Positions 48,159-62,314 of a stretch of DNA of 64,000 nt are shown here, in pieces. The translations under genes were made by a program, and so were the position numbers. Each line of letters begins with the position of its first letter. The stretch's first letter is position 1. Under the pieces are notes generated by a model that saw only the letters and a list, made by a program, of their open reading frames with translations, ran no database searches and was not told the DNA's origin. The DNA is taken from contig CAXXVS010000002.1 in assembly GCA_963674755.2 (NCBI GenBank), positions 224,001-288,000 of the forward strand, in the 5' to 3' direction. Source of the DNA: Desulfobacterales bacterium (GTDB lineage: Bacteria; Desulfobacterota; Desulfobacteria; Desulfobacterales; UBA5852).

Positions 48159-48336
48159 GAGCTTTTAGGGCAAGGTTTGGTATTCAGAGGCTTCCATCTG
48201 AAAGTATTGAGGAGCGCCGCGCGTCAATATACCGTCGACAATGTCATGTGCGACAGTGACAAACACTTCGATTCGGTTCTAATCCGCTGATCATTTGAGC
48301 TCCAAAAAGTCGGATCCAGGGAAAGAGGCTACGAGC

Positions 48337-48753
48337 GTGCTTGAACTTGCGATTGCAATTGCCGCGAAGGTCCACGCGGGAAAAGTGGACAAGGTCGGCG
48401 CGCCCTATATCCTCCACCCCCGTCGTGTGATGCTGAAAATGGAGACTTCCGAAGAGCAGATGGCCGCGGTTCTCCGCGATGTGGTCGAGGACAGCGACAC
48501 GACGCTCGATGATCTCAGAAACGAAGGCCTCGCGGACGCGGTTGTCGATGCGGTCGATGCCGTCACGATACGGTCCGGTGAGTTCTATGATGAATTCGTG
48601 CGGCGGGCAGCGCTCAAGCCAATCGGCAGGCGCGTGAAACTTGCCGACCTGGAGGACAACAGCGACCGGTCACGCATCGCCAATCCGACGGAAGAAAATG
48701 ACGGACGCCTTGCGAAGTACAAGCGCGCTATCCACACCATTCGTCACAACTGA
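48337..48753 (+). CDS. Small HD-domain protein (Mesh1/SAH-like) with an altered HD motif
   Basis: H.G.VDK.G.PYILHP, VLRDVVED (normally HD), VKLADLEDN. Confidence 0.75.
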   Translation: MLELAIAIAAKVHAGKVDKVGAPYILHPRRVMLKMETSEEQMAAVLRDVVEDSDTTLDDLRNEGLADAVVDAVDAVTIRSGEFYDEFVRRAALKPIGRRVKLADLEDNSDRSRIANPTEENDGRLAKYKRAIHTIRHN

Positions 48754-48783
48754 TTGACATTATGTTGTTTATTTTAGTATCAA
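48754..48783 (+). promoter_or_regulatory. Putative sigma70 promoter of the riboswitch transcript
   Basis: TTGACA at 48754; TAGTAT/TATCAA at 48775-48783 (spacing not ideal). Confidence 0.45.
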
Positions 48784-48787
48784 CGAC

Positions 48788-48868
48788 AAAGCATGACAAC
48801 ACCAAACCCGGTGGGAACCGGGGACGTAAAGCCACGGGTCCGAAGGGGATGGCCAGGTTGCTGACGGA
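48788..48868 (+). ncRNA. GEMM-I cyclic dinucleotide riboswitch, GEMM-Ib (3',3'-cGAMP)-type signature
   Basis: GACAACACCAAA-CCCGGT-GGGA-ACCGGG-GACGTAAAGCCACGGGTCC...GGATGGCCAGGTTGCTGA: P2 with GNRA loop, GACGnAAAGCC junction, A at the G20-equivalent position. Confidence 0.85.
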
Positions 48869-48876
48869 TGGATTAG

Positions 48877-48912
48877 AAACCCGGGACCCGACTGGTCCGC
48901 GGGTTTTTTTTG
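48877..48912 (+). terminator. Intrinsic terminator (riboswitch expression platform)
   Basis: AAACCCGGGACC-CGACT-GGTCCGCGGG followed by a T-run. Confidence 0.75.
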
Positions 48913-49043
48913 TGGCATGCGCCTCAACTTCAACCTCGCCTTACAATCTCCCCGACTAAGAAGGGGCGACTGCCGCCGATGCGGCATTGCTTATTGGGCG
49001 AAAAAGTATTCCCCCACTGGTTCAGCTAAGGACTGAAAACACT

Positions 49044-50489
49044 GTGCCCCTCGACTACACCACCCTTGATCTGCTCCGTCGCAACAATCCGGCCTGGCGC
49101 CTGCTGCGGTCGGATCACGCACCGTTGGTGGTCAGCTTTTTCCAGCGGGTATTTGTCGACGCCAATGTGCGGTCGATCTCCCAGGCCGACCTGGTGGAAG
49201 CTCTCGAGGACGAACTGTTCGCCCTGCGGGAGCGCTTGGGGAATGACGCATTCCCCAAGTCGGCCCAGCAATATCTCAACGACTGGGCGGACAACGCAAA
49301 AGGGTGGCTGCGCAAGTTTTATCCCTCCGGGTCGGACGCCCCCCATTTCGACCTGACCCCCTCCACCGAGAAAGCGATTAGCTGGCTGGCGAGCCTGACC
49401 GAGCGCGCCTTTGTGGGAACGGAATCGCGCCTGCTGACCTTGTTCGAACTCCTGCGGCAGATGCGCGAGGGGACCGAGACCGATCCCGACACGCGTATTG
49501 CCGAACTGACCAGGCGGCGTGCCGAGATCGACGCGGACATCGCCAGGGTCGAAGCCGGCGAGGTTCCCGTACTGACCGACACAGCCCTCAAAGACCGTTT
49601 TCAACAGTTCCTCCAGATGGCTCGCGAGCTGCTCGCCGATTTCCGCGAGGTGGAACACAACTTTCGCCTCCTCGATCGCAAGGTCCGTGAGCGCATTGCG
49701 TTGTGGGACGGTACCAAGGGCGCATTGCTCGAAGAGATCATGGGGGAGCGGGATGCCATCGCCGATTCCGACCAGGGCAAGAGTTTTCACGCATTCTGGG
49801 ATTTTCTCATGTCCCAGCGTCGCCAGGAGGAGTTGACCCAACTTTTGGAGGACGTTTTGGATCTTCCGCCGGTGGCCGAGTTGAACCCCGACCCGCGCCT
49901 ACGTCGGGTCCACTACGACTGGCTCGAGGCCGGCGAGGTCACCCAGCGCACGGTGGCGCGTTTGTCCCAGCAGCAGCGGCGGTTTCTCGACGACAAGGCC
50001 TGGCTGGAGAACCGGCGTATCATGGACATCCTGCACGGCATCGAAGCCAAATCCCTGGAGGTCCGCGAAACCGCGCCTTCCGGCGATTTCATGCCGTTGG
50101 ACGACAGCGCGGTCACCGTCGATCTTCCCCTGGAGCGGCCCCTGTTCCGTCCGCCGGTCCGCCCGCAGATTGCCGACGTGGCGCTGGAACCAGGGGAGGG
50201 CGAGGTCGATGCCGCAGCCCTGTTCGCCCAGGTGGTGGTGGACCGGGAAGCGCTCGTGCGGCACCTCCGCCAGGCACTGCAGTCCCGCTCCCAGGTCAGT
50301 CTCGAAGAGCTGGTGGCAGCACGCCCCCTACGCCAGGGCTTGGCGGAGCTGATCGCCTACCTGCAGTTGGCCGGCGAATGGCCCCACGCCGTGGTGGACG
50401 AGCAAACCATTACGCGGATCCAATGGGAAATGGAAGGGGACACGGTGCGGCGGGCTTCCCTGCCACGGATCATCTTTGTGAGGGATTAA
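49044..50489 (+). CDS. jetA: Wadjet JetA (DUF3375)
   Basis: PAWRLLRSDHAP, W...GWLRK, FVGTESRL, SDQGKSF..FWDFL; operon order. Confidence 0.9.
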   Translation: MPLDYTTLDLLRRNNPAWRLLRSDHAPLVVSFFQRVFVDANVRSISQADLVEALEDELFALRERLGNDAFPKSAQQYLNDWADNAKGWLRKFYPSGSDAPHFDLTPSTEKAISWLASLTERAFVGTESRLLTLFELLRQMREGTETDPDTRIAELTRRRAEIDADIARVEAGEVPVLTDTALKDRFQQFLQMARELLADFREVEHNFRLLDRKVRERIALWDGTKGALLEEIMGERDAIADSDQGKSFHAFWDFLMSQRRQEELTQLLEDVLDLPPVAELNPDPRLRRVHYDWLEAGEVTQRTVARLSQQQRRFLDDKAWLENRRIMDILHGIEAKSLEVRETAPSGDFMPLDDSAVTVDLPLERPLFRPPVRPQIADVALEPGEGEVDAAALFAQVVVDREALVRHLRQALQSRSQVSLEELVAARPLRQGLAELIAYLQLAGEWPHAVVDEQTITRIQWEMEGDTVRRASLPRIIFVRD

Positions 50490-50491
50490 AA

Positions 50492-51121
50492 ATGGACGAT
50501 TTGGAACCCGCAGCGCAATCCCCTTCAAACGATCACAACCTCTCGGAGGTGGTTGTCCCCCTGCTCAAGGGCGTGCTCTACATGGCGGACAACCCGGCCC
50601 AGTGGAACGCCCTGCTGGACCTGCAGTTTCGCGTGCGCGACTATGTCGCCGTGCTCGGGCTGGAGCTGATGCTGGACGAGGCCGAAGGCTACGCCTACCT
50701 GCGGTCCTTCCCGGAGGAAGAGGGCCCCGACAGCCTCAAACGGCCGCGGCTGGTGGCCCGCCGGCAACTCTCCTTTCCGGTCAGCCTGCTGTTGGCCCTG
50801 TTGCGCAAGAAGCTGGCGGAGTTCGACGCGCGGGGCGGCGACACCCGCTTGATCCTCACGCGCGAGGAGATCGTGGAACTGATCCGGGTGTATCTGCCCG
50901 AGGGCACCAACGAAACCCGTTTGATCGACCAGGTCGGGACCCACCTGAACAAGGTCGCCGACCTCGGCTTTATCCGCCGCCTGCGGGGCCAGTCCAACAC
51001 GTTCGAGGTCCGCCGCATCCTCAAGGCCTTTGTGGATGCCCAGTGGCTGGCGGAATTCGATCAGCGCCTGGCCGATTACCGGCAGCACCTGACACAGACC
51101 GGGGAGGGGAACGATGGCTGA
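50492..51121 (+). CDS. jetB: Wadjet JetB (DUF4194)
   Basis: [41 protein letters not shown]. Confidence 0.9.
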
Positions 51122-54100
51122 AATCCTGGAACTCTCCTTCGTGGACAACGACCAGCTGGCCGGTTTTCGCCTGCAGCGGTTGGAAGTCTACAACTGGGGG
51201 ACCTTCGACCGGAAGGTGTGGACCCTGCACCTCAACGGCCGTAACGCCCTCCTGACCGGCGACATTGGCTCGGGCAAGTCCACCCTGGTGGATGCCCTCA
51301 CCACGCTGCTGGTGCCCCAGCAGCGCATCACCTACAACAAGGCGGCCGGGGCCGGGGCCCGCGAACGCACCCTGCGCTCATACGTCATGGGCCACTACAA
51401 GTCCGAACGCAACGAGGTCGGCGGCAGCGCCAAACCGGTGGCCCTGCGCGACCCCAACCATTACGCCGTCATCCTGGGGGTGTTCCACAACGCGGGCTAC
51501 CTCAAGACCGTGACCCTGGCCCAGGTCTTCTGGATCAAGGATCTCCAGGGGCAGCCCGCCCGCTTCTACACGGCCTGCGAGCGTGAGCTTTCCATCGCCG
51601 AGGATTTCGCCCAATTCGGAACCGACATCGTCCAGCTGCGCAAGCGCCTGCGGTCTTCAGGCGTCACGGTCTGGGACAGTTTCCCGCCTTACGCGGCCTG
51701 GTTCCGGCGGCGCTTCGGGATCGACAACAACCAGGCCCTGGAGCTCTTCAACCAGACCGTGTCCCTCAAATCCGTGGGCAACCTCACCGATTTCGTGCGC
51801 ACCCACATGCTGGAGCCCTTTGACGTGGCCCCCCGCATCAAGGCCCTGATCGAGCACTTCGACGATCTCAACCAGGCCCACAAGGCGGTCCTCAAGGCCC
51901 GGCAGCAGATCGAGAAGCTCACCCCGCTGGTGGCCGACTGCGATCGTCACGCCGAGCTGGCGGCTTCCGCCGACGAACTGCGGGCCTGCCGGGAAGCTCT
52001 GCAGGCCTGGTTTGCGGGATTGAAATTGGCGTTGCTGGAACAACGGCTGGGCGTCCTGAAGGAAAAGATCGGCCGACACCAGACCAAAATTGAAAGTCTG
52101 TCAGAGCGCAGGCATTCGTTGCAACTCAAAGAACGTCACTTGCGGAAGAACATCACCGAGAACGGCGGTGACCGCATCGAGCGCATCAGAGAGGAAATCC
52201 GCGCCAAGGAAGCCGAGCAACAGCGCAGAAGACGCAAAGCCGACCGCTATGCCGAATTGATCTCAATCCTGGATCTGGTGCCCGCCGAGACAGAAGAGGT
52301 TTTCCTTTCCCACATGCAACGCTGCGACGTCTTGCGCGAGCAAACGGAGCAGCGCGAGGCGCAGCTTCAAAACGACCTGAATGAAAGAAGGGTGGCTTTA
52401 TCCCAAAAGCGCAGCGAGCACGAGCAGCTGCAGGCGGAAATCGCCGGCCTCAAGGCCCGGCGTAGCAACATTGACGAAAAGCAGGTGGCCATGCGCCGCA
52501 TGATCTGCAGCGCCCTCGATCTTCCCGAAGACGACATGCCCTTTGCCGGTGAGCTGATCCAGGTGCGCGAGGAGGAGCGCGACTGGGAGGGGGCCATCGA
52601 GCGCCTGATGCGGAATTTCGGTCTGTCGCTGCTGGTGCCGGACGCGCACTACCCCCGGGTGGCCGCCTGGGTGGACAAAACGCACCTCAAGGGGCGCTTG
52701 GTCTATTTCCGCGTGCGCCCGTCGCGTAAGGCTGCCCCGTCGTCCCTGCGGCCCGATGCCCTGGGCCGTAGGATCGCCGTCAAACCCGATTCGGCTTATT
52801 ACGACTGGCTGGAAGGGGAGATCGCCAAACGCTTCGACGTGGCCTGCTGTGACACCCAGGACCAGTTTCGGCGCGAGACCCGGGCCATCACCCGGGCCGG
52901 CCAGATTAAGATGCCGGGCGAGCGCCACGAAAAGGACGACCGGCACCGGATCGATGACCGCAGCCGCTACGTGTTGGGCTGGAACAACACGGCCAAGATT
53001 GCCGTGCTGGAAAAGAAGGCTCGGCAGCTGGAAAAGCTTATTGGTGAAATGGATGGCCTCATCGCTGAGCGGGAGCGCGAGCAGCAGACCCTCAAGGATC
53101 GTCTGACCACCCTTTTTCAATTGGGCGAGCACCGCGATTTCCGGGAAATGGACTGGCGGTCCCTGGTGGCAGAGATCGCCGACCTGCAGAACGAGAAGCA
53201 GCGCCTGGAGACGGCTTCCGACACCCTGCAGACGCTGAACGCCGAACTCGAAAGGCCGAGAAAGCCGCTGCCGAAAACGAACAGCAGCTCGACCAGGTCA
53301 AGGGTCAGTGCTCCCGGCTGGAGCAGAGAAAAAGCGACACGGAAACCATGTGTCAGGAGGTGCGTGTTGTGCTGGAAGACACCGATCCGGCCCACGAGGC
53401 CTATTTCGAGCGCTTGGCGGCCTTGCGCGAGGAGGCCCTGGACGGACCGGCCCTCACGGTGGAATCCTGCGACCCGGCCGAACGCAAGCTCCGCGACTGG
53501 CTGCAGGCCAAAATCGACGCCGAAGACAAAAAACTCGCCCGGCTGCGCGACAAGATCATCGAGGCCATGCACGGCTTCCGGACCGCCTACCCCCTGGAAA
53601 CCCAGGAGGTCGACGCCGCGGTCGAGGCGGCGGGCGAATACCGGGAAATGCTGCAGCAGCTCAAGGCCGACGACCTGCCGCGCTTCGAGGCGCGCTTCAA
53701 GGAACTGCTCAACGAGAACACCATCCGCGAGGTGGCCAACTTCCAGTCCCAGCTGGCGCGGGAGCGCGAGACCATCAAGGAGCGCATCGCGCACATCAAC
53801 ACCTCGCTCTCCCAGATCGACTACAACCCGGGCCGCTACATCGTGCTGGAGGCGCAGCCCGGCACCGACGCCGACATCCGGGATTTTCAAAGCGAGCTGC
53901 GGGCCTGCACCGAAGGCGCGCTCACCGGTTCGGACGACGCCCAGTACTCCGAGGCCAAGTTCCTGCAGGTGCGCCGGATCATCGAAAAATTCCGCGGCCG
54001 CGAAGGCCAGTCCGAACAGGACCGCCGCTGGACCGCCAAGGTGACCGACGTGCGCAACTGGTTCGTCTTCGCCGCCAGCGAGCGCTGGCGCGAGGACGGC

Positions 54101-54478
54101 AGCGAGTACGAGCACTACACCGACTCGGGCGGCAAGTCCGGCGGGCAGAAGGAGAAGCTGGCCTACACCGTGCTGGCGGCCAGCCTGGCCTACCAGTTCG
54201 GCCTGGAGTGGGGCGAGGTGCGCTCGCGCTCCTTCCGGTTCGTGGCCATCGACGAGGCCTTCGGCCGCGGCTCGGACGAGTCGGCCCACTACGGGCTGCA
54301 GCTTTTCAACCAGTTGAACCTGCAGCTGTTGATCGTCACCCCCCTGCAGAAGATCCACGTCATCGAACCGTACGTTTCCGGCGTGGGGTTCGTACACAGT
54401 GAAGACGGCAAAACCGCCAGCCTGCGCAACCTGACCATCGAAGAGTACCGGGAGGAAAAGCGGAGGCAGCAGACGTGA
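51114..54478 (+). pseudogene. jetC: Wadjet JetC SMC-like ATPase split by a 1-nt frameshift near 53250
   Basis: YNWGTF and Walker [10 protein letters not shown] in one frame; SGGQKEK and IDEAF in another; adding one A at GAAAGG (53250-53255) restores the frame. Confidence 0.88.
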
Positions 54479-55665
54479 ACTGGACCCGGCCCGGCGACCT
54501 TCGTAAAATGGTTCAACGCCTGTGGGACCGGGGGGCCCTGCTGGCAAGCCTGGCCGGGGGCGAGTCCCTTTTCCCCAAACGGTTGCCGCTCAAGGGGCCT
54601 GCCTCCACCGAACTCACCCAAAACTTTGACGAGGTGCGCCGCTGGATCGCCCAGCTCGACCGCCAGGCCAAGCACTACCGCATCGTTTGGCGCCACGTGA
54701 ACCACCGGGTTCTGGGCGCCAATGACCTGCCGAGTGAAGTCTGGATCGACACCCTGGACGACGCCCTGGCCTTGGTCGACCGGCGCCGGGCGGCCGAACG
54801 GTTTACCGTGTTGGTGGCCGTGACCCAAGAGCGGCTGCCCGATCTCGATCCCTGGCTCCGCAAACGGCCTTTGCGCGCGCTGGCCCTGGCGGACGACTGG
54901 CCTCTCCTGCTCGACATCGTCACCTGGATGCGCCGACACCCCCGTCCAGGTTTGTATCTGCGCCAGGTGGACATCCCCGGCGTCCACAGCAAGTTCATCG
55001 AGGGGCACCGGTCCGTCCTGATGGAGCTGTTCGACCTGGTATTGCCCGAGGAAGTGGTGGACAGGGAGTCCCGCGGCGTGTCTGGGTTCGGCCGGCGCTA
55101 CGGGTTTCAGGACAAGCCGGTGCGGGTGCGGTTTCGTATTCTGGACGACGCTTGCGCGGTCTTTGCCACTGGCACGGACCAGGACATCGCGGTCACCCAC
55201 GACACCTTCGCCGGCCATGATCCGCCGGTCGACACCGTCTTTATCACTGAAAACGAGATCAACTTCCTGGCCTTTCCTCGGGCTGCGGGGTGTATGGTCG
55301 TTTTCGGCGCGGGCTACGGGTTCGACATGTTATCCCGGGCCCGCTGGTTGCACGACCGGCGCCTCTTTTACTGGGGCGACATCGACACCCACGGGTTCGC
55401 CATCCTCGATCAACTGCGCGGTCAATTCCCACATGCCCGGTCTTTCCTCATGGACCGTGATACCCTCATGGCCCACAAGAGCCTCTGGGGGCGAGAACCG
55501 CGACAGGAAACCCAGGATCTGCCGCGGTTGGACCGCGAGGAGCAAGCGCTGTTTGACGATCTCCGCTACAACCGATTGACCGACCAATTGCGGTTCGAAC
55601 AGGAAAGGGTGGGGTTTGACTGGGTCAAAAACAGGGTGGCGGATTTGACCGGAATTCCTTCGTGA
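54475..55665 (+). CDS. jetD: Wadjet JetD TOPRIM nuclease (DUF3322+DUF2220)
   Basis: YLRQVDIPGVHSKFIE, ITENEINF, GAGY, YWGDIDTHGF, RFEQE. Confidence 0.92.
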   Translation: MNWTRPGDLRKMVQRLWDRGALLASLAGGESLFPKRLPLKGPASTELTQNFDEVRRWIAQLDRQAKHYRIVWRHVNHRVLGANDLPSEVWIDTLDDALALVDRRRAAERFTVLVAVTQERLPDLDPWLRKRPLRALALADDWPLLLDIVTWMRRHPRPGLYLRQVDIPGVHSKFIEGHRSVLMELFDLVLPEEVVDRESRGVSGFGRRYGFQDKPVRVRFRILDDACAVFATGTDQDIAVTHDTFAGHDPPVDTVFITENEINFLAFPRAAGCMVVFGAGYGFDMLSRARWLHDRRLFYWGDIDTHGFAILDQLRGQFPHARSFLMDRDTLMAHKSLWGREPRQETQDLPRLDREEQALFDDLRYNRLTDQLRFEQERVGFDWVKNRVADLTGIPS

Positions 55666-55741
55666 TCTTCGTGGTGAGCGCTTTTGCATCAAAATAAGCA
55701 CGCGCCTTACCGAAAATTCCATTCATTAAAATGAACCAAAG

Positions 55742-55825
55742 TTGACATGTAATTCTGTAAATAATATGGTAAAGACCATTATAGTGATCCAAAATTGTTG
55801 GAATCTATGTTTATGGTACCATAAA
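55742..55825 (+). promoter_or_regulatory. hipA promoter with palindromic operator
   Basis: TTGACA-17-TATGGT; perfect palindrome TTTATGGTACCATAAA at 55810-55825. Confidence 0.65.
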
Positions 55826-55832
55826 GTGAACT

Positions 55833-57119
55833 ATGAAGTGTACGATCCAAATATTTCTTGACGACCGTTGGCAAACGGCCGCGGTGTTCGAGCCTGATCC
55901 GCAGACCCTGGACCGCGGCATTGCCGGAGGGGGGCGGCTGCAATACGACACCGACTATGCCATCGGCCATTTGGGTGAGAAAGCTGCTGAGTTGGTGCCC
56001 GGGCAACAGGTCGGCTTCGAACTGTTCCGGTTCGACCAATGGCCGCCGTTCCTGGTCGATGTGATGCCCTCGGGTGCCGGACGCCGGGCCTGGCTCCGGC
56101 GTATGCAGGTGGAAAGGGACGGCCCGCACGCGGATTGGCACTTGCTCACCCGGGGCGCCGGCAGTCCGCCGGGCCATCTGCGGATTGCCGAAGCGGTCCA
56201 GCCGCCGCCTCCGGACCATTTCAAAATCGGGTTTCCCCGCCGGGACATCGTCGAACAAGCGGAACGGTTCCTGGATTACGCCGAAGAACGGGGGGCTCAT
56301 GTGGCCGGGGCCTCCAGCGTGCAGGGGGAGGCGCCCAAGTATTTACTGGTCGAGGACCACGCCGGCATGTTTCACGCCGAGGGCGCGCTGACGGACGACA
56401 GGATCAAGGCTTTCTGGCTGGTCAAATTTCCCCGCGGGCGTCGCAGCGAGGCGCGCAACGAACAGGTCCTGCGCAACGAGGCGGCCTATCTGGAAGTGGC
56501 CCGCCACTTCGGCATTCGCACCGCAAGCCCTCTGCGATACGAACACGGGGCGCTTTTCGTGCCGCGCTTCGACCGGCGGGTGGCGGACGGCCGCGTGGAA
56601 CGCCTGGGTATGCACAGCCTATATGCCGTGGCCGGCCAATCGGGCTATGGCGCGGCGGTGTCCAATGACACCTTCTGCCGTGCCCTCGCAGCGGTCGCCA
56701 CCGATCCTGCCCGGGAATTACGGGAGTATATCCGCCGCGACATCCTCAACCTGGCCCTGCGCAACACCGACAACCACGGCCGCAATTCGGCCGTTCTGCG
56801 AAGCGGTGACCAGATCGCCCTTTCCCCTCTATTCGATTTTGCGCCGATGTTCCTGGACCCGGAGGGGATCGGCCGTGTCAGCCGCTGGGAAGACGAAGAA
56901 CCCGGCCGCCAGCCGGATTGGCGGGCTGTCATCGAAAAATTCGAAGATATTCTCCCGCCTGCGGATGCGATGCTGTGGTTGGCCGGATTAGGGGCGAAGG
57001 TTCGCCACCTTCCCGCAGCGATGCGGGATTGCCGGGTCGACGAGGATATCATCGAACGGCTTTCCCGCTGGATCGGGGAAGTGGCCGCCGGACTGATCGA
57101 TGCCGGACGCCGGGTTTAG
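55833..57119 (+). CDS. hipA: HipA family toxin kinase
   Basis: SVQGEAPK, WLVKFP, RFDR, NTDNHGRN, LSPLFD. Confidence 0.9.
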   Translation: MKCTIQIFLDDRWQTAAVFEPDPQTLDRGIAGGGRLQYDTDYAIGHLGEKAAELVPGQQVGFELFRFDQWPPFLVDVMPSGAGRRAWLRRMQVERDGPHADWHLLTRGAGSPPGHLRIAEAVQPPPPDHFKIGFPRRDIVEQAERFLDYAEERGAHVAGASSVQGEAPKYLLVEDHAGMFHAEGALTDDRIKAFWLVKFPRGRRSEARNEQVLRNEAAYLEVARHFGIRTASPLRYEHGALFVPRFDRRVADGRVERLGMHSLYAVAGQSGYGAAVSNDTFCRALAAVATDPARELREYIRRDILNLALRNTDNHGRNSAVLRSGDQIALSPLFDFAPMFLDPEGIGRVSRWEDEEPGRQPDWRAVIEKFEDILPPADAMLWLAGLGAKVRHLPAAMRDCRVDEDIIERLSRWIGEVAAGLIDAGRRV

Positions 57120-57136
57120 AAAGACAGGTCGTCATC

Positions 57137-57433
57137 ATGAAACGCCCATCACCGGACGAAATGACCCGCATGAAGGAGAACCTCTATCGCGACCTCGCCC
57201 GAGGTGCCGTCGATATCCGGGAGGCCTCGCGCCGCATGCGCCGGATCCTGGGAATGAGCCAGAAAGATTACGCCCGCAAAGTGGCTGGGATCGCGCCCCG
57301 CATCCTGGCCGAGTTTGAAAACGGCTCCGGCAATCCCACCCTGGCCACCCTGGAGAAGATCGCCACCCCTTTCGGGCTGAAGGTCACCTTCCTGCCACCC
57401 GCGTCCTGGCGAATGGAAAAAACGGATGGTTGA
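57137..57433 (+). CDS. XRE-family HTH protein, probable antitoxin
   Basis: GMSQKDYA...EFENGSGNPTLATLEKI..PFGL. Confidence 0.85.
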   Translation: MKRPSPDEMTRMKENLYRDLARGAVDIREASRRMRRILGMSQKDYARKVAGIAPRILAEFENGSGNPTLATLEKIATPFGLKVTFLPPASWRMEKTDG

Positions 57434-57455
57434 GGCGCTTTGTGTGCGGTTGGTT

Positions 57456-57552
57456 GGCCACCAAGTGGCCGTTGGTCGTGACAACCTTCGTCCCGCAAAG
57501 CGGGACAACCCACGCCCCGGGAAACGAGGCAACCTGCGCCGGCGCAGCCGGC
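57456..57552. repeat. Array of short GC hairpins, copy 1
   Basis: GGCCAC-CAA-GTGGCC, GTCCCGC-AAA-GCGGGAC, GCCGGC-GCA-GCCGGC. Confidence 0.65.
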
Positions 57553-57657
57553 ATGTAGATGGCTGCGGCCGCATCGGATCAAATTGACAACGGTTATCGA
57601 TTTGAAATACTTTAGGCATCGAAGGTAATCGGGCACTAATTGAGAGGCAATCGTGTC

Positions 57658-57954
57658 ATGGCACAGATTGACATTCCCAGAGAGCAAATTGCCGATTTCT
57701 GCCGGCGGAACCGCATTCGTCGACTGGCACTGTTCGGCTCGGTGCTGCACGGGAACGCCGGCGCTGACAGCGATGTGGACGTGCTGGTCGAGTTCGAGCC
57801 CGGTGTGCGCGTCGGTCTCAGGTTTTTCGACATTCAAGAAGAGTTGTCCGACCTCTTCGGCCGCAAGGTCGATTTAAACACGCCCAATTTCCTAAGCCGT
57901 TATTTCCGCGATCAGGTGCTGAAAGAAGCCGAGGATCTCTATGCCCACGCCTGA
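57658..57954 (+). CDS. MNT (minimal nucleotidyltransferase) antitoxin
   Basis: LFGSVL....DSDVDVLVEF, GRKVDL. Confidence 0.9.
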   Translation: MAQIDIPREQIADFCRRNRIRRLALFGSVLHGNAGADSDVDVLVEFEPGVRVGLRFFDIQEELSDLFGRKVDLNTPNFLSRYFRDQVLKEAEDLYAHA

Positions 57955-58067
57955 GGAATCGACTCATCCACGGCTATGACGCTGTGGATTTTGGCATTCT
58001 CTGGGATATCCTCAAATATGACCTGCCTCCTCTCATCCAGCGACTGGATGAGATCCTGCAGTCCTAA
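57941..58067 (+). pseudogene. Truncated HEPN (DUF86) toxin
   Basis: From 57951 reads LRNRLIHGYDAVDFGILWDIL..DLP.L (RX4HXY); the N-terminal part is missing and ATG 57941 is out of frame. Confidence 0.8.
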
Positions 58068-58114
58068 AAATTGATCCGGTCCCTGTGGGTTGGACGCTCC
58101 GCACCCGCAAGTAT

Positions 58115-58260
58115 GGGCACTCCGTGCCCGTTGGTCGTAACAACCAACGTCCCGCGTCGCGGGACCACAAACGCTCGCAAAGCGAGCACACTTACGCCAG
58201 CGCAGCTGGTAAACCCACCCCCCGCACTGCGGGGCAAACCCACGTCCCGTTTAGCGGGAC
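58115..58260. repeat. Array of short GC hairpins, copy 2
   Basis: GGGCAC-TCC-GTGCCC, GTCCCGC-GTC-GCGGGAC, GCTCGC-AAA-GCGAGC, CCAGC-GCA-GCTGG, CCCCGC-ACT-GCGGGG, GTCCCG-TTTAG-CGGGAC. Confidence 0.7.
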
Positions 58261-58751
58261 ATCTTTTAAATCATTGGACTTTTCCGATAATTTATGGGAA
58301 AAAATCCTCAAGTTTTTCGGCGTAGGCACCGATTCCCTTGTGGTTTCGCATGTTGAATTTGTCGGCAGGCTGCAGCAGCCTGCCGACCCGTATCCTGCCG
58401 ACTCGCAGGAACCTCCTTGAGTCCTATTCATGACGCCAGCGGTTCAATCAAAATTGGATCACTCTCGCTCACGCCATCAAGGCCCCAAGTGGTCTTTCCC
58501 GCCTCATCCCGCGCCTATAACAACAAAGCTAAACCAAAAACCAGATCCTCACCCAAAGACACAGGGAATCTGGGACAGCCTTTAGCGAGAAAGTTCTGGG
58601 ATATTGCGATGGTTAAGGTTCAGGCAAATGGATTGACATAAAAACATAGACGTCCCTCTTCTTGGCCCCTCTTCTTGGCCAAGAATAACCCGTTAGGCTC
58701 CTTTGACGATGTCGGCAAAATATAACTGGGAACTGGAATTAAAAAGCGTTT

Positions 58752-59956
58752 ATGCAACAAGACGTCTCGGAAAAACCACAACGCGCGAACGGACTTAAAG
58801 CGCAGCTGTTCCTCATCCTTTTCCCGACATCGATTTTTTTCCTCAACTTTCTGTCGCGGATCATCCTCGCACCGCTATTGCCAACCGTCGAACTGGATCT
58901 TGGCATCAGCCACGGCGCGGCCGGTTCGCTTTTTCTCTTAATCTCGGTCGGATATTTCGCGGCTCTATTGGCATCCGGTTTTGTTTCGGCCCGTTTTCTT
59001 CATCGACGGACCATTGTGCTTTCGACCGTATCTTTGGGGGTCGCCTTTATCTCACCGCGTTCAGCCATGGGCTTTTCGGAATGCGGATCGGCATGATCCT
59101 CCTGGGAATGGCCGCGGGCCTCTATCTCCCTTCGGGAATAGCGTCGATTACCCACTTGGTTGACGTCCGGCACTGGGGAAAGGCGCTGGCCATCCATGAA
59201 ATGGCCCCCAACCTGGCCTTCGTGGCGGCGCCCCTGCTTGCAGAGTTCATGCTGGGATGGATTTCGTGGCGGAATGTCCTGATCGTCCTCGGCAGCCTGA
59301 CGGTGGCGGCATCGATCGCTTTTTCCAGGTTCGGTCAGGGGGGCGACTTTCCGGGCCGCGCTCCCGGATTCGGGGCCTGCAGAACGCTTTTCAAACTGCC
59401 GGCCTTTTGGATCATGACGGTGCTTTTTATGCTGGGAATCAGCTCCACTTTGGGAATCTACACGATGCTGCCGCTTTTTCTGGTAACGACGCACGGCATG
59501 GATCACAGCCTGGCAAACGAACTCATCGGCCTGTCCCGCGTGCTGAGCATCGCCATGGTCCTGCTGGCCGGCGTTGTCAACGATCGATTGGGGCCCAAAC
59601 GCACCTTGATGGCGGTATTGCTTTTGTCCGGCACGATGACGATCCTGCTCGGATTAGTGACGAAGTCCTGGGTGGTTCTCATTGTTTTCCTGCAGCCTCT
59701 CATGGCCGTTAGCTTTTTCCCGCCCGCTTTTGCGCTTCTGTCTGCCGTCGGTCCACCCGATGTGCGCAATGTTAGCGTTTCACTGGCCGTGCCAGCGGGG
59801 TTTATGGTCGGTGGCGGCGTCATGCCGCTGTTTATCGGCTTTATGGGCGACAGGGGATGCTTTCCCGGCGGCATTGTCATCGTGGGGGGCTTGATTTTGG
59901 CCGGTGCCTTTCTGTCCGCATTTCTAAAGTCTCACCAGGAAAACGGGGGGCACTAA
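58752..59956 (+). pseudogene. MFS transporter, frameshifted near 59050
   Basis: FLSRIILAPLLP...SARFLHRR in one frame continues as GMRIG...NDRLGPKR in another. Confidence 0.8.
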
Positions 59957-60085
59957 TCTTCCGGCGCCTGGCACAGTCAACGATCAGGACCATCTGCCTG
60001 CCCATCCGCTCAATTCGTACAAGCCGGAGCAGCCGCTAAGGGCAAGCGGACAAACGAAAACGCCGAGGAAGTTATCGAATTCACG

Positions 60086-60562
60086 GTGCCGTGGCTCGAG
60101 GGGCGCTGCACCAATGAGGGATCCTTTGTATGGCTTTCTGACAATGTGGGCAGTCCAATCAATGTGGACACAGGTTGTAAGAGTGCCCCTTCGAATGCAT
60201 CCGAGGACGAGTTGGATATCGAGCTATATCACCACGAGTACGGCGATTTTCAGCGCCTGAAAAGGAAGAAGTGGCATTGGCAGTTTCTGGCGTCGGGTGA
60301 GGTCACATGGAACATGGCCAGTACGACTTACTCTACTTTTTACATCGGCAGCACCCGTGACAACCGGTTCTGGTCGCTGCAGGACCTTTCCCACAACCGG
60401 AAGATCGTCGCCATTGCCGAGGTGAACAACTTTCAGTCGCTCCACGTCCCCGAGATCGCCCTGGCGTTGCTGAGGACCTATTCCGGCGGCGACGATTTTC
60501 TGATTCGACAGATGACAGAGTTCGGCAAAATACCATTCCCGATTCCAGGTATGGGACACTGA
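60086..60562 (+). CDS. Hypothetical protein, possibly 5'-truncated
   Basis: 158-aa ORF with no recognised motif and no clear RBS. Confidence 0.35.
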   Translation: MPWLEGRCTNEGSFVWLSDNVGSPINVDTGCKSAPSNASEDELDIELYHHEYGDFQRLKRKKWHWQFLASGEVTWNMASTTYSTFYIGSTRDNRFWSLQDLSHNRKIVAIAEVNNFQSLHVPEIALALLRTYSGGDDFLIRQMTEFGKIPFPIPGMGH

Positions 60563-60732
60563 TGAGCGCTGATGAACACGGATAAAACCGAAAGTTTATG
60601 AGGCTTCGCCTAAACGGCCAACGGCCTACAGCCTAACCCCCTTTTTAGCCACGGATGGACACAGATACACACGGATACCCTTAGATAAGCGTACAGATCC
60701 AGAATCGAGTACCCAGGAACCAGCATCCAGCA

Positions 60733-60819
60733 ACGCACGAAACTAAACTTAGGGTTACGAAGAATGCGTCATCGTTCAACCACTTGCACAAAACTAAACC
60801 ATCGGTTACTATTTGTGCA
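60733..60819 (+). promoter_or_regulatory. Paired imperfect inverted repeats upstream of abiEi
   Basis: GCACGAAACTAAAC...GGTTAC and TGCACAAAACTAAACC-ATC-GGTTACTATTTGTGCA. Confidence 0.5.
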
Positions 60820-61400
60820 TGAGCGATTCAACCAAAAAGCCAAACTGGGATCTCCTGTTTGAGACGGCGAACGCCCAAGAGGGCTACTTCACCACCAGGC
60901 AAGCTGCCGAGGCAGGTTTCTCGTCGCAGCTGCTTCTCAAGCACATCCGCGCGGGTCGCGTCACACGTACACGCCGGGGCATCTATAGGCTCGTCCACTT
61001 CCCTGCGGGTGAGCACGAAGAACTGGTCGTCGCTTGGCTCTGGTCGGACAGGGCCGGCGTCGTTTCGCACCAGACCGCGCTGTCGCTCCACGGGCTCTCG
61101 GACGTGCTGCCGGCGCATGTCCATCTGACCCTGCCGCGAGCTTGGCAAAGCCGCCGACTCAGGATTCCTGACGGGGTCGTGGTCCACCATGCTGACGTGC
61201 CATCGAACGACCGGTCCTGGTTCGGCGCGGTGCCGACCACCAACCCGCGCCGCACGCTGAACGACTGCGCTCACGAGGAACTGTCGCCCGATCTGCTGCG
61301 CCAAGCAGCTCAGCAAGCCATTCGTCGGGGCCTCGTTACCACGGCAGAGATCGGCGAGGTCGAAGAGGCGCTGCGCGTTTTCGGAGGGTTCGGCATATGA
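60819..61400 (+). CDS. abiEi: Type IV TA antitoxin, AbiEi family
   Basis: QEGYFT..QA, RGIYRL, VSHQTALSLHGL, VPTT.P.RTL.D. Confidence 0.88.
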   Translation: MSDSTKKPNWDLLFETANAQEGYFTTRQAAEAGFSSQLLLKHIRAGRVTRTRRGIYRLVHFPAGEHEELVVAWLWSDRAGVVSHQTALSLHGLSDVLPAHVHLTLPRAWQSRRLRIPDGVVVHHADVPSNDRSWFGAVPTTNPRRTLNDCAHEELSPDLLRQAAQQAIRRGLVTTAEIGEVEEALRVFGGFGI

Positions 61401-62314
61401 CGACCCGCACCTATTCTTCACCCGCGGCCTTCAAACAGGCGCTTGAACAGCGCCTACGCTCGGCGACAAATACGGGTGTAGAGTTCGCCCGCAAGCGGCA
61501 GCTGCTCGTGTTTGATCGCTTCCTCGCGCGTATCGTCGCCACGCTCGGTGACACCGCCACACTTAAAGGTGGGCTCGTGCTGGAGCTTCGCCTCAAGCGG
61601 GCGCGCACCACGAAGGACGTCGACCTGAGGTTGATGGACTTTCAGGGTGGCATCCTTGAGAGGTTGCAGGAAGCGGGCAGACAAGACCTCGGCGACTTCA
61701 TGACCTTCGAGGTCGGCCCGGACAACGAACACCCGGAGATTGTGAACGATGGGTTGCAGTACGATGGCCTTCGATTCCGTGCTGAGTGCCGGCTCGCCGG
61801 GAAGGTATACGGCCAGCCCTTCGGCGTTGACGTTGCGTTTGGTGATCCGATCCTTGGAGAGCCCGAGGTGGTGGTGGCGGAAGACGTGTTGGCGTTCGCC
61901 GGCATCGCGCCACCCAGACTGCGCCTGTACCCGGTTGAGTCCCACATCGCCGAAAAGCTGCATGCGTACACCATGCCCCGCAGTCGTCCCAATTCGCGGG
62001 TGAAGGATCTACCGGACATCGCCTTATTGGCCTCCGTGCGTGACATCGACAGCATGACATTGCGCACCGCCATCGAACGGACGTTCAAACACCGGGCGAC
62101 ACACCCAGTGCCAGCGTCGGCGCCCGCGCCTTCGGAAGCTTGGGCGCCTGTCTATGCTCGAATGGCAGCGAACGACAGGCTCAAGTGGCAGACACTGGAT
62201 GAGCTGACCCGGGCCGTTCAAACTTTTCTCGACCCGCTGCTCGCTGGGGAGATCGGGAAATGGGAAGCGGAGGCGTGGGCCTGGTCCGCCGTTCAGGCGA
62301 ACAATCCGAAATAA
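61397..62314 (+). CDS. abiEii: Type IV TA toxin, AbiEii nucleotidyltransferase
   Basis: LKGG, RTTKDVD, IAEKLHA, SRVKDL.D; ATGA overlap with abiEi. Confidence 0.9.
   Translation: MTTRTYSSPAAFKQALEQRLRSATNTGVEFARKRQLLVFDRFLARIVATLGDTATLKGGLVLELRLKRARTTKDVDLRLMDFQGGILERLQEAGRQDLGDFMTFEVGPDNEHPEIVNDGLQYDGLRFRAECRLAGKVYGQPFGVDVAFGDPILGEPEVVVAEDVLAFAGIAPPRLRLYPVESHIAEKLHAYTMPRSRPNSRVKDLPDIALLASVRDIDSMTLRTAIERTFKHRATHPVPASAPAPSEAWAPVYARMAANDRLKWQTLDELTRAVQTFLDPLLAGEIGKWEAEAWAWSAVQANNPK

Follow-up and report, generated by a model that had tools for sequence, protein, structure and literature searches.

The 64,000-nt stretch of DNA analysed here (contig CAXXVS010000002.1 of the Desulfobacterales assembly GCA_963674755.2, positions 224,001 to 288,000; hereafter the window) carries a Wadjet anti-plasmid operon, jetABCD, preceded on the same strand by a promoter candidate, a GEMM-I riboswitch aptamer and an intrinsic terminator (Table 1). 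The aptamer is the sole Rfam match at gathering score in the window and belongs to the family RF01051 (c-di-GMP-I, after cyclic di-GMP), with 45.2 bits against a cut-off of 35 and an E-value of 1.3e-5. An earlier note, made from the sequence alone, had described a GEMM-I-like aptamer with A20, A47, C92 and a C-U mismatch at pair 21-46 (Vc2 numbering), followed by an intrinsic terminator and, about 130 nt on, by jetA with no credible gene between; this architecture was recovered in full, and the intervening spacer holds no conserved gene.

Table 1. Coordinates of the leader, the Wadjet operon and adjoining genes in the window.
Feature	Position	Strand	Basis or remark
HD_4-like gene	48295..48753	+	stop codon abuts the -35 box; RD in place of the HD motif
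sigma70-type promoter candidate, inferred function	48754..48783	+	TTGACA -35, weak TATCAA -10, 18-nt spacer
GEMM-I (c-di-GMP-I) aptamer, probably a decayed copy	48791..48865	+	Rfam RF01051, rank in the genome, orthologue comparison
aptamer 3' strand, predicted antiterminator partner	48853..48859	+	CCAGGUU here, CCGGGUU at 5 other loci; constrained folding
intrinsic terminator	48877..48911	+	sequence and folding; hairpin kept at 6/6 loci
spacer and ribosome-binding site	48912..49043	+	near-neutral divergence; no promoter-like site
jetA (DUF3375), intact	49044..50489	+	PADLOC JetA1, E 1.5e-224
jetB (DUF4194/MksE)	50492..51121	+	PADLOC JetB1, 2e-94
jetC, SMC ATPase, frameshifted near 53250	51114..54478	+	PADLOC JetC1 on both pieces
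jetD, Toprim nuclease (DUF3322 and JetD_C)	54475..55665	+	PADLOC JetD1, 1e-152
hipA-like kinase and HTH_3 gene	55833..57433	+	move with the module in G001

The perfect -35 hexamer (48754-48759) is followed by TATCAA, and four orthologous leaders read TTGACA-17 nt-TACCAA. The terminator stem (48877-48906, -18.4 kcal/mol) runs into eight T at 48904-48911. Its 5' arm reads AACCCGG (48878-48884), the complement of the ancestral aptamer strand CCGGGUU; the CCAGGUU of the window does not match it. Since the arm still fits the ancestral G, the A at 48855 is derived. The GTG start of jetA lies 132 nt past the T run. A consensus scan found no plus-strand promoter between terminator and jetA (48915-49040), and a 39-codon open reading frame in the spacer is absent from the orthologues. 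The spacers of several copies share TTGACC and a TGACAAT/TACAAT motif, and one leader (genome G001, L120) has an insertion of about 145 nt between terminator and jetA, absent at the other five loci and probably a small repeat element.

The operon is of type I, as matches to the PADLOC models JetA1, JetB1, JetC1 and JetD1 follow one another in the order A-B-C-D, and the Walker A, signature and Walker B motifs of JetC and the acidic Toprim motifs of JetD are readable. The SMC subunit is not full-length in the window: compared with two orthologues, jetC is one base short near 53250, a frameshift already named in the earlier note, whereas JetC has 1121 residues in G001, G013 and G014. The jetA gene of the window is under purifying selection (private codon changes: 23 synonymous, 4 non-synonymous), so some read-through from the leader, or a recent decay of it, is needed. 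Contigs of sequencing runs were compared with the window. Those of run X1, possibly the source sample, show zero differences over 48200-49464 and 52913-53487; a contig of run X7, from another study (depth 3.35), is identical over 48794-49007, A20 included; and run X3 has one contig across 48200-54246 with 28 differences and jetC in frame. Sequencing or assembly error behind A20, U46 or the frameshift is thereby ruled out by X1, and for A20 and U46 also by X7. The A20 allele is real, and the jetC frameshift is real but strain-specific.

The junction of leader and jetA is not confined to this strain. Promoter, aptamer, terminator, spacer and jetA stand in this order at six loci, namely the window, the genomes G014, G001 and G013, which emerged from a DNA search of 41 genomes, and the metagenome loci L161 and L164. 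Within the 17 genomes of the family, this jetA occurs in five and the leader in four, G015 (82% JetA) having no leader. A pattern scan of metagenomes returned 16 loci, of which 11 are not riboswitches and 5 are GEMM-I, L161 and L164 running into jetA; these two, having been found through the riboswitch pattern, were excluded from the frequency counts. Viral contigs gave 0 matches to the pattern, and among 32 plasmid records the 20 shown match jetA only. The upstream neighbours vary: the window and L161 have an HD gene there, G001 and L164 a Fic gene, and G014 an integrase-like remnant with a transposase. Homology of the window with G001, L164 and G014 starts at the -35 box (48740-48753). It follows that promoter, riboswitch and operon move as a unit; the block 48740-57478, through jetD, hipA and the HTH (helix-turn-helix) gene, is common to the window and G001 at 78-89% identity. 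In a quick tree of 37 JetA sequences at 63% identity or more, the six leader-bearing proteins (the other five 87-94% identical to that of the window) fall on one side of a branch with a Shimodaira-Hasegawa-like approximate likelihood ratio (SH-aLRT) support of 92, which fits a single capture of the leader. Among titled JetA records, the closest bear the names Desulfobacteraceae or Desulfobacterales. The worry that the switch had been orphaned by a gene deletion in this genome only is ruled out, the junction recurring at five other loci and the spacer reading frame not being conserved. The linkage of two known parts is thus real, repeated and apparently undescribed: no paper on a cyclic-dinucleotide riboswitch with a Wadjet operon was found in a search outside of which lay subscription journals and supplementary gene-association tables, and published c-di-GMP-I association tables could already list DUF3375.

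The aptamer core has been constrained while linked to jetA, its sole downstream gene, as a comparison of the two fully intact copies, L161 and G014, suggests. These differ at 1 of 61 core sites and at 25 of 114 spacer sites (Fisher p 1e-4), although the numbers are small and the copies are kin and not independent; the promoter differs at 7/29 sites, the 5' flank at 5/17, the linker at 4/15 and the four-fold sites of jetA at 46/236. Parsimony over five copies gave 12 changes at the 61 core sites (0.20 per site) versus 64 at the 114 spacer sites (0.56 per site). Because all copies share the junction to jetA, this constraint acted after the capture.

From these observations, a hypothesis on the working of the leader may be put forward, to which we assign a probability of about 0.57: GEMM-I aptamer and terminator are the constant leader at the 5' end of a mobile type I Wadjet operon in one small clade and likely act as a c-di-GMP OFF switch, of which the copy in the window is a probably decayed, ligand-blind descendant. 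An OFF switch is predicted since the 5' arm of the terminator can pair with the aptamer 3' strand. Transcription would start just past the TTGACA promoter. Without ligand, CCGGGUU would pair with AACCCGG and the polymerase would read into jetABCD; with c-di-GMP bound, the aptamer would hold CCGGGUU, the terminator would form and Wadjet would be off, as in Cd1, which has a terminator separate from its aptamer and is described as an OFF switch, pilM being an ON switch (PMC9262584). High c-di-GMP, as in the sessile state, would in this way lower plasmid defence. In the lineage of the window, G20A, G46U and the G-to-A change at 48855 would weaken both aptamer and antiterminator and leave a mostly terminated, ligand-independent leader, jetC being additionally lost in this strain by the frameshift. 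Constrained folding, which describes equilibrium only and takes in neither ligand, tertiary contacts nor kinetics, gave for the full-length leaders antiterminator and aptamer-stem probabilities of 0.70 and 0.19 (G014), 0.13 and 0.67 (L164), 0.42 and 0.008 (L161), 0.23 and 0.003 (G001), and 0.00002 and 0.004 (window). At about 98 nt, the antiterminator probability was 0.61 in G014, 0.88 in L164, 0.71 in G001, 0.37 in the window and 0.004 in L161. In G014, antiterminator and aptamer folds of the full-length leader lie near each other in energy. By this modelling the leaders of G014 and L164 appear poised, that of L161 gives an ambiguous picture and that of the window seems to favour termination.

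Besides the equilibrium character of the folding, several points weigh against a c-di-GMP switch. Only two of the six copies are fully intact (G014 and L161); the G001 aptamer has two further broken pairs and that of L164 is mildly altered (A49C), and so few intact copies suggest that the switch is often lost. Even in L161 competing folds dominate at 98 nt. The G20-C21/G46 subtype is unlike Vc2, which has G21-C46, c-di-GMP is its putative ligand, and these genomes encode Hypr-type GGDEF proteins. Among jetA loci with at least 400 nt upstream, the leader is present in 4 of 70 and absent in 66; the loci were found by protein (30 of the 44 places of one search and 48 of another, 75 of them distinct). 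A model, R1, run over 78 jetA loci detected no general association of Wadjet with riboswitches, its strong matches being only in this clade; its source copies were of the Desulfobacterales type and it may overlook distant GEMMs, and its matches in L083 and L081 (18 and 14 bits) lie on the opposite strand, outside the leader. The small clade probably goes back to a single capture. The leaders are also mosaic, with identical promoters in G001 and L164 and jetA genes 47/217 four-fold sites apart, and recombination may add to the similarity of the core. Finally, the TTGACA box of the promoter proposed in the earlier note is present, but the -10 box is weak, and a consensus promoter scan did not list it.

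A possible, clearly less probable account of the same data is that a cassette of promoter, riboswitch and terminator came, in a single capture, from a surface-protein gene to its place before jetA. It would serve as a mere promoter and leaky attenuator keeping a costly nuclease operon in check, control by ligand being of no lasting benefit and the aptamer eroding. The usual targets of this riboswitch subtype agree with such an origin. Among the first downstream genes of 32 copies scanned there were 9 for PEP-CTERM proteins, 1 for a pilin, 1 for a polysaccharide-export protein and 1 for a NERD protein; these targets are surface or secreted proteins, which makes Wadjet an outlier, and the one NERD gene among the 32 gives no general link of the subtype to defence genes. 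Similar cassettes lie in flexible regions of the genome, some without a clear gene, the linkage probably has a single origin, and pair-breaking changes occur in 3/5 readable copies while the terminator hairpin is kept in 6/6. Set against this is the 61-nt core, unpaired ligand-pocket bases included, which is nearly identical in L161 and G014 while promoter, flank, linker and spacer have diverged. This is more than an attenuator would need, and we therefore retain the c-di-GMP OFF leader as the preferred reading.

The earlier note had assigned the aptamer to the GEMM-Ib riboswitches, which bind cGAMP (3',3'-cyclic GMP-AMP) and are marked by A at position 20. This part of its proposal is not borne out. 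The A is present at 48801, with A47 (48828) and C92 (48861) intact; U46 (48827) faces C21, a C-A mismatch interrupts the second stem, and A20 is not conserved among the orthologues, as all four that are readable (G014, L161, L164 and G001) have G20. G014 and L161 keep all three ligand contacts, G20, A47 and C92. The aptamer of G013 has an assembly gap that leaves position 20 unreadable. With L161, its nearest relative, which shares the HD gene and has an identical 5' flank, the window differs at four core positions, all of them private to the window: G20A, G46U, a tolerated wobble at 48850 (C to U) and the G-to-A change at 48855. For comparison, we inspected 48 other GEMM-I copies, 17 from the genome of the window and 31 from other genomes or metagenome loci retrieved by likeness to the window aptamer. 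All 48 keep the 21-46 pair and the G at 48855, G20 is found in 45 (in 16 of the 17 from the same genome), and the three with A20 all keep C21-G46. As two private changes break pairs kept in every other copy, the window copy is probably a decayed, ligand-blind descendant, and the C21-U46 mismatch, which the earlier note had held as a caveat, belongs to this decay. By score it is the 16th of 18 GEMM-I copies in its genome (150 of 563 candidates were scored, and an extra motif scan gave no further real copy). The cGAMP subclass as ancestral state is ruled out by the G20 of all four readable orthologues, and the A20 of the window is a private mutation, one of several, and probably not the mark of a cGAMP switch.

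It has been reported that G20 pairs with c-di-GMP and A20 with cGAMP or both, and that the G20A mutant of Vc2 is bispecific, with dissociation constants of 120 nM for cGAMP and 53 nM for c-di-GMP (PMC6140456); A20 alone, then, does not make a GEMM-Ib switch. The same bispecificity, together with A20, A47 and C92, could speak for a lineage retuned by G20A to cGAMP or to both ligands, with a Hypr GGDEF enzyme gating Wadjet. The allele also recurs in the independent sample X7, purifying selection acts on the jetA of this branch, run X3 has an unbroken jetC frame, and the genome has a candidate source of cGAMP, a GGDEF-family protein with the Hypr serine. There are 21 GGDEF matches in the genome; by motif, 16 candidates were listed, of which 13 have Asp at what we take to be position 344 of PleD, 2 are unreadable and 1 has Ser (C3:918280-919767; L178:3280-4767). 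This last, with a PAS-type sensor, has AGDEF in place of GGDEF, so that its activity is putative; its best solved relative is 6D9M, presumably the GacA domain, with the same serine in the alignment. PMC6456294 lists a construct fitting 6D9M as the GacA domain, and PMC8835794 describes the Hypr-defining serine. G001, G005, G013, G014 and G015 have serine-bearing orthologues, so the presence of a Hypr-type GGDEF does not track A20. Retuning is, moreover, made unlikely by the two uncompensated pair breaks that came with A20 and are seen in 0/48 other copies, by the C21-G46 kept in the other three A20 copies, and by the four core changes, no fewer than neutral drift on this branch allows (by our estimate about 6 expected, the four-fold distance of 0.207 being halved). 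The suggested link to a cyclase of a cyclic-oligonucleotide-based antiphage signalling system (CBASS) is unsupported, as the one CD-NTase family searched, SMODS (PF18144), has no match in the genome, which is 97% complete. Equally doubtful is a combined scheme, in which an ancestral c-di-GMP OFF leader opens biofilm cells to plasmids and the window lineage, its ligand change in progress, is rewired to cGAMP from the GacA-like Hypr cyclase. Least probable of all is that selection acts on the short terminated RNA of about 125 nt, as a small RNA or sponge that binds the ligand, with jetABCD driven from a separate promoter in the spacer: the strong terminator after the aptamer and the recurrent spacer motifs would fit, but no promoter-like plus-strand site was found in 48915-49040, spacer divergence is close to neutral and a switchable antiterminator is encoded.

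Several further observations concern GEMM-I copies and the surroundings of the operon. The three other A20 copies, L013 (G000 C1:333200-333284, before a PEP-CTERM gene), L136 (before a DUF6160 gene) and L145, appear to be better GEMM-Ib candidates than the window copy; with nearly all GEMM-I copies in the genome carrying G20, a receptor for cGAMP is not obvious. In G013 (L042/L122), a paralogous riboswitch of the same genome (L198) matches the 3' half of the jetA-leader aptamer without a difference, and the first stem of that aptamer has two compensatory pairs relative to the other five loci; either gene conversion or a misassembly may be the cause. A 73-kb flexible region (G000 C2:1826017-1898789; L117-L119) with transposases and toxin-antitoxin genes holds four GEMM-I cassettes with separate terminators, one before a NERD-domain gene and two without a clear downstream gene, and tandem GEMM-I arrays occur in relatives (L032, L033, L165, L166), L033 having four aptamers within 360 nt. 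The HD_4-like gene has RD in the window and HD in L161; a paralogue, 85% identical, lies at G000 C2:1285771-1286164 (L126), in an island with an integrase, an SNF2 helicase and a DarT-HD fusion. Downstream, 55833-62314 holds the hipA-HTH genes, a small nucleotidyltransferase-type pair (read by eye), a major facilitator superfamily gene and AbiEi/AbiEii. Past the window end, a DUF1848-methylase fusion and a Shedu-like gene follow in the island (L123), and a weak GEMM-I (C2:301443-301541) precedes a PEP-CTERM gene there. The window showed no tRNA site.

In fold and, in intact copies, in the pocket positions G20, A47 and C92, the leader resembles known c-di-GMP-I riboswitches (RF01051) such as Vc2 of Vibrio cholerae and Cd1 of Clostridioides difficile, and it shares with Cd1 the separate terminator and a predicted three-strand antiterminator (PMC9262584). 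It differs from known members in heading a defence operon instead of motility or surface genes, and from Vc2 in its C-G pair at 21-46 (G-C in Vc2), the window copy departing further by A20, the C-U mismatch at 21-46 and the C-A mismatch in the second stem. With the GEMM-Ib riboswitches of Geobacter (Gs1761, pilM) the window has A20 and a candidate Hypr-type GGDEF in the genome in common; here, however, A20 is private to one lineage, its orthologues have G20 and the 21-46 pair is broken, and pilM is an ON switch (PMC9262584), whereas the platform here is predicted to be OFF. The operon matches type I Wadjet in gene order and in readable JetC and JetD motifs and is set apart by the riboswitch leader and, in the window strain, the frameshifted jetC. 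The nearest parallel is the RCd22 leader of AbiF in C. difficile, where a structured RNA with an intrinsic terminator likewise limits read-through into a defence gene (bioRxiv 10.1101/2025.04.15.648962). RCd22 is described there as 'riboswitch-like' and as an antitoxin RNA, for which the available text of that preprint names no small-molecule ligand, unlike the validated second-messenger riboswitch class found here.

The reach of the finding is limited to one small clade, in which the window's own copy is probably broken. The clade nevertheless forms a ready test set, in which two leaders are intact and three altered, while the sister operon of G015 has none. The finding bears on how bacteria time costly defence systems. 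Should the intact leaders work as predicted, plasmid defence would be turned off by c-di-GMP in the sessile state, in which gene exchange is considered to be most frequent.

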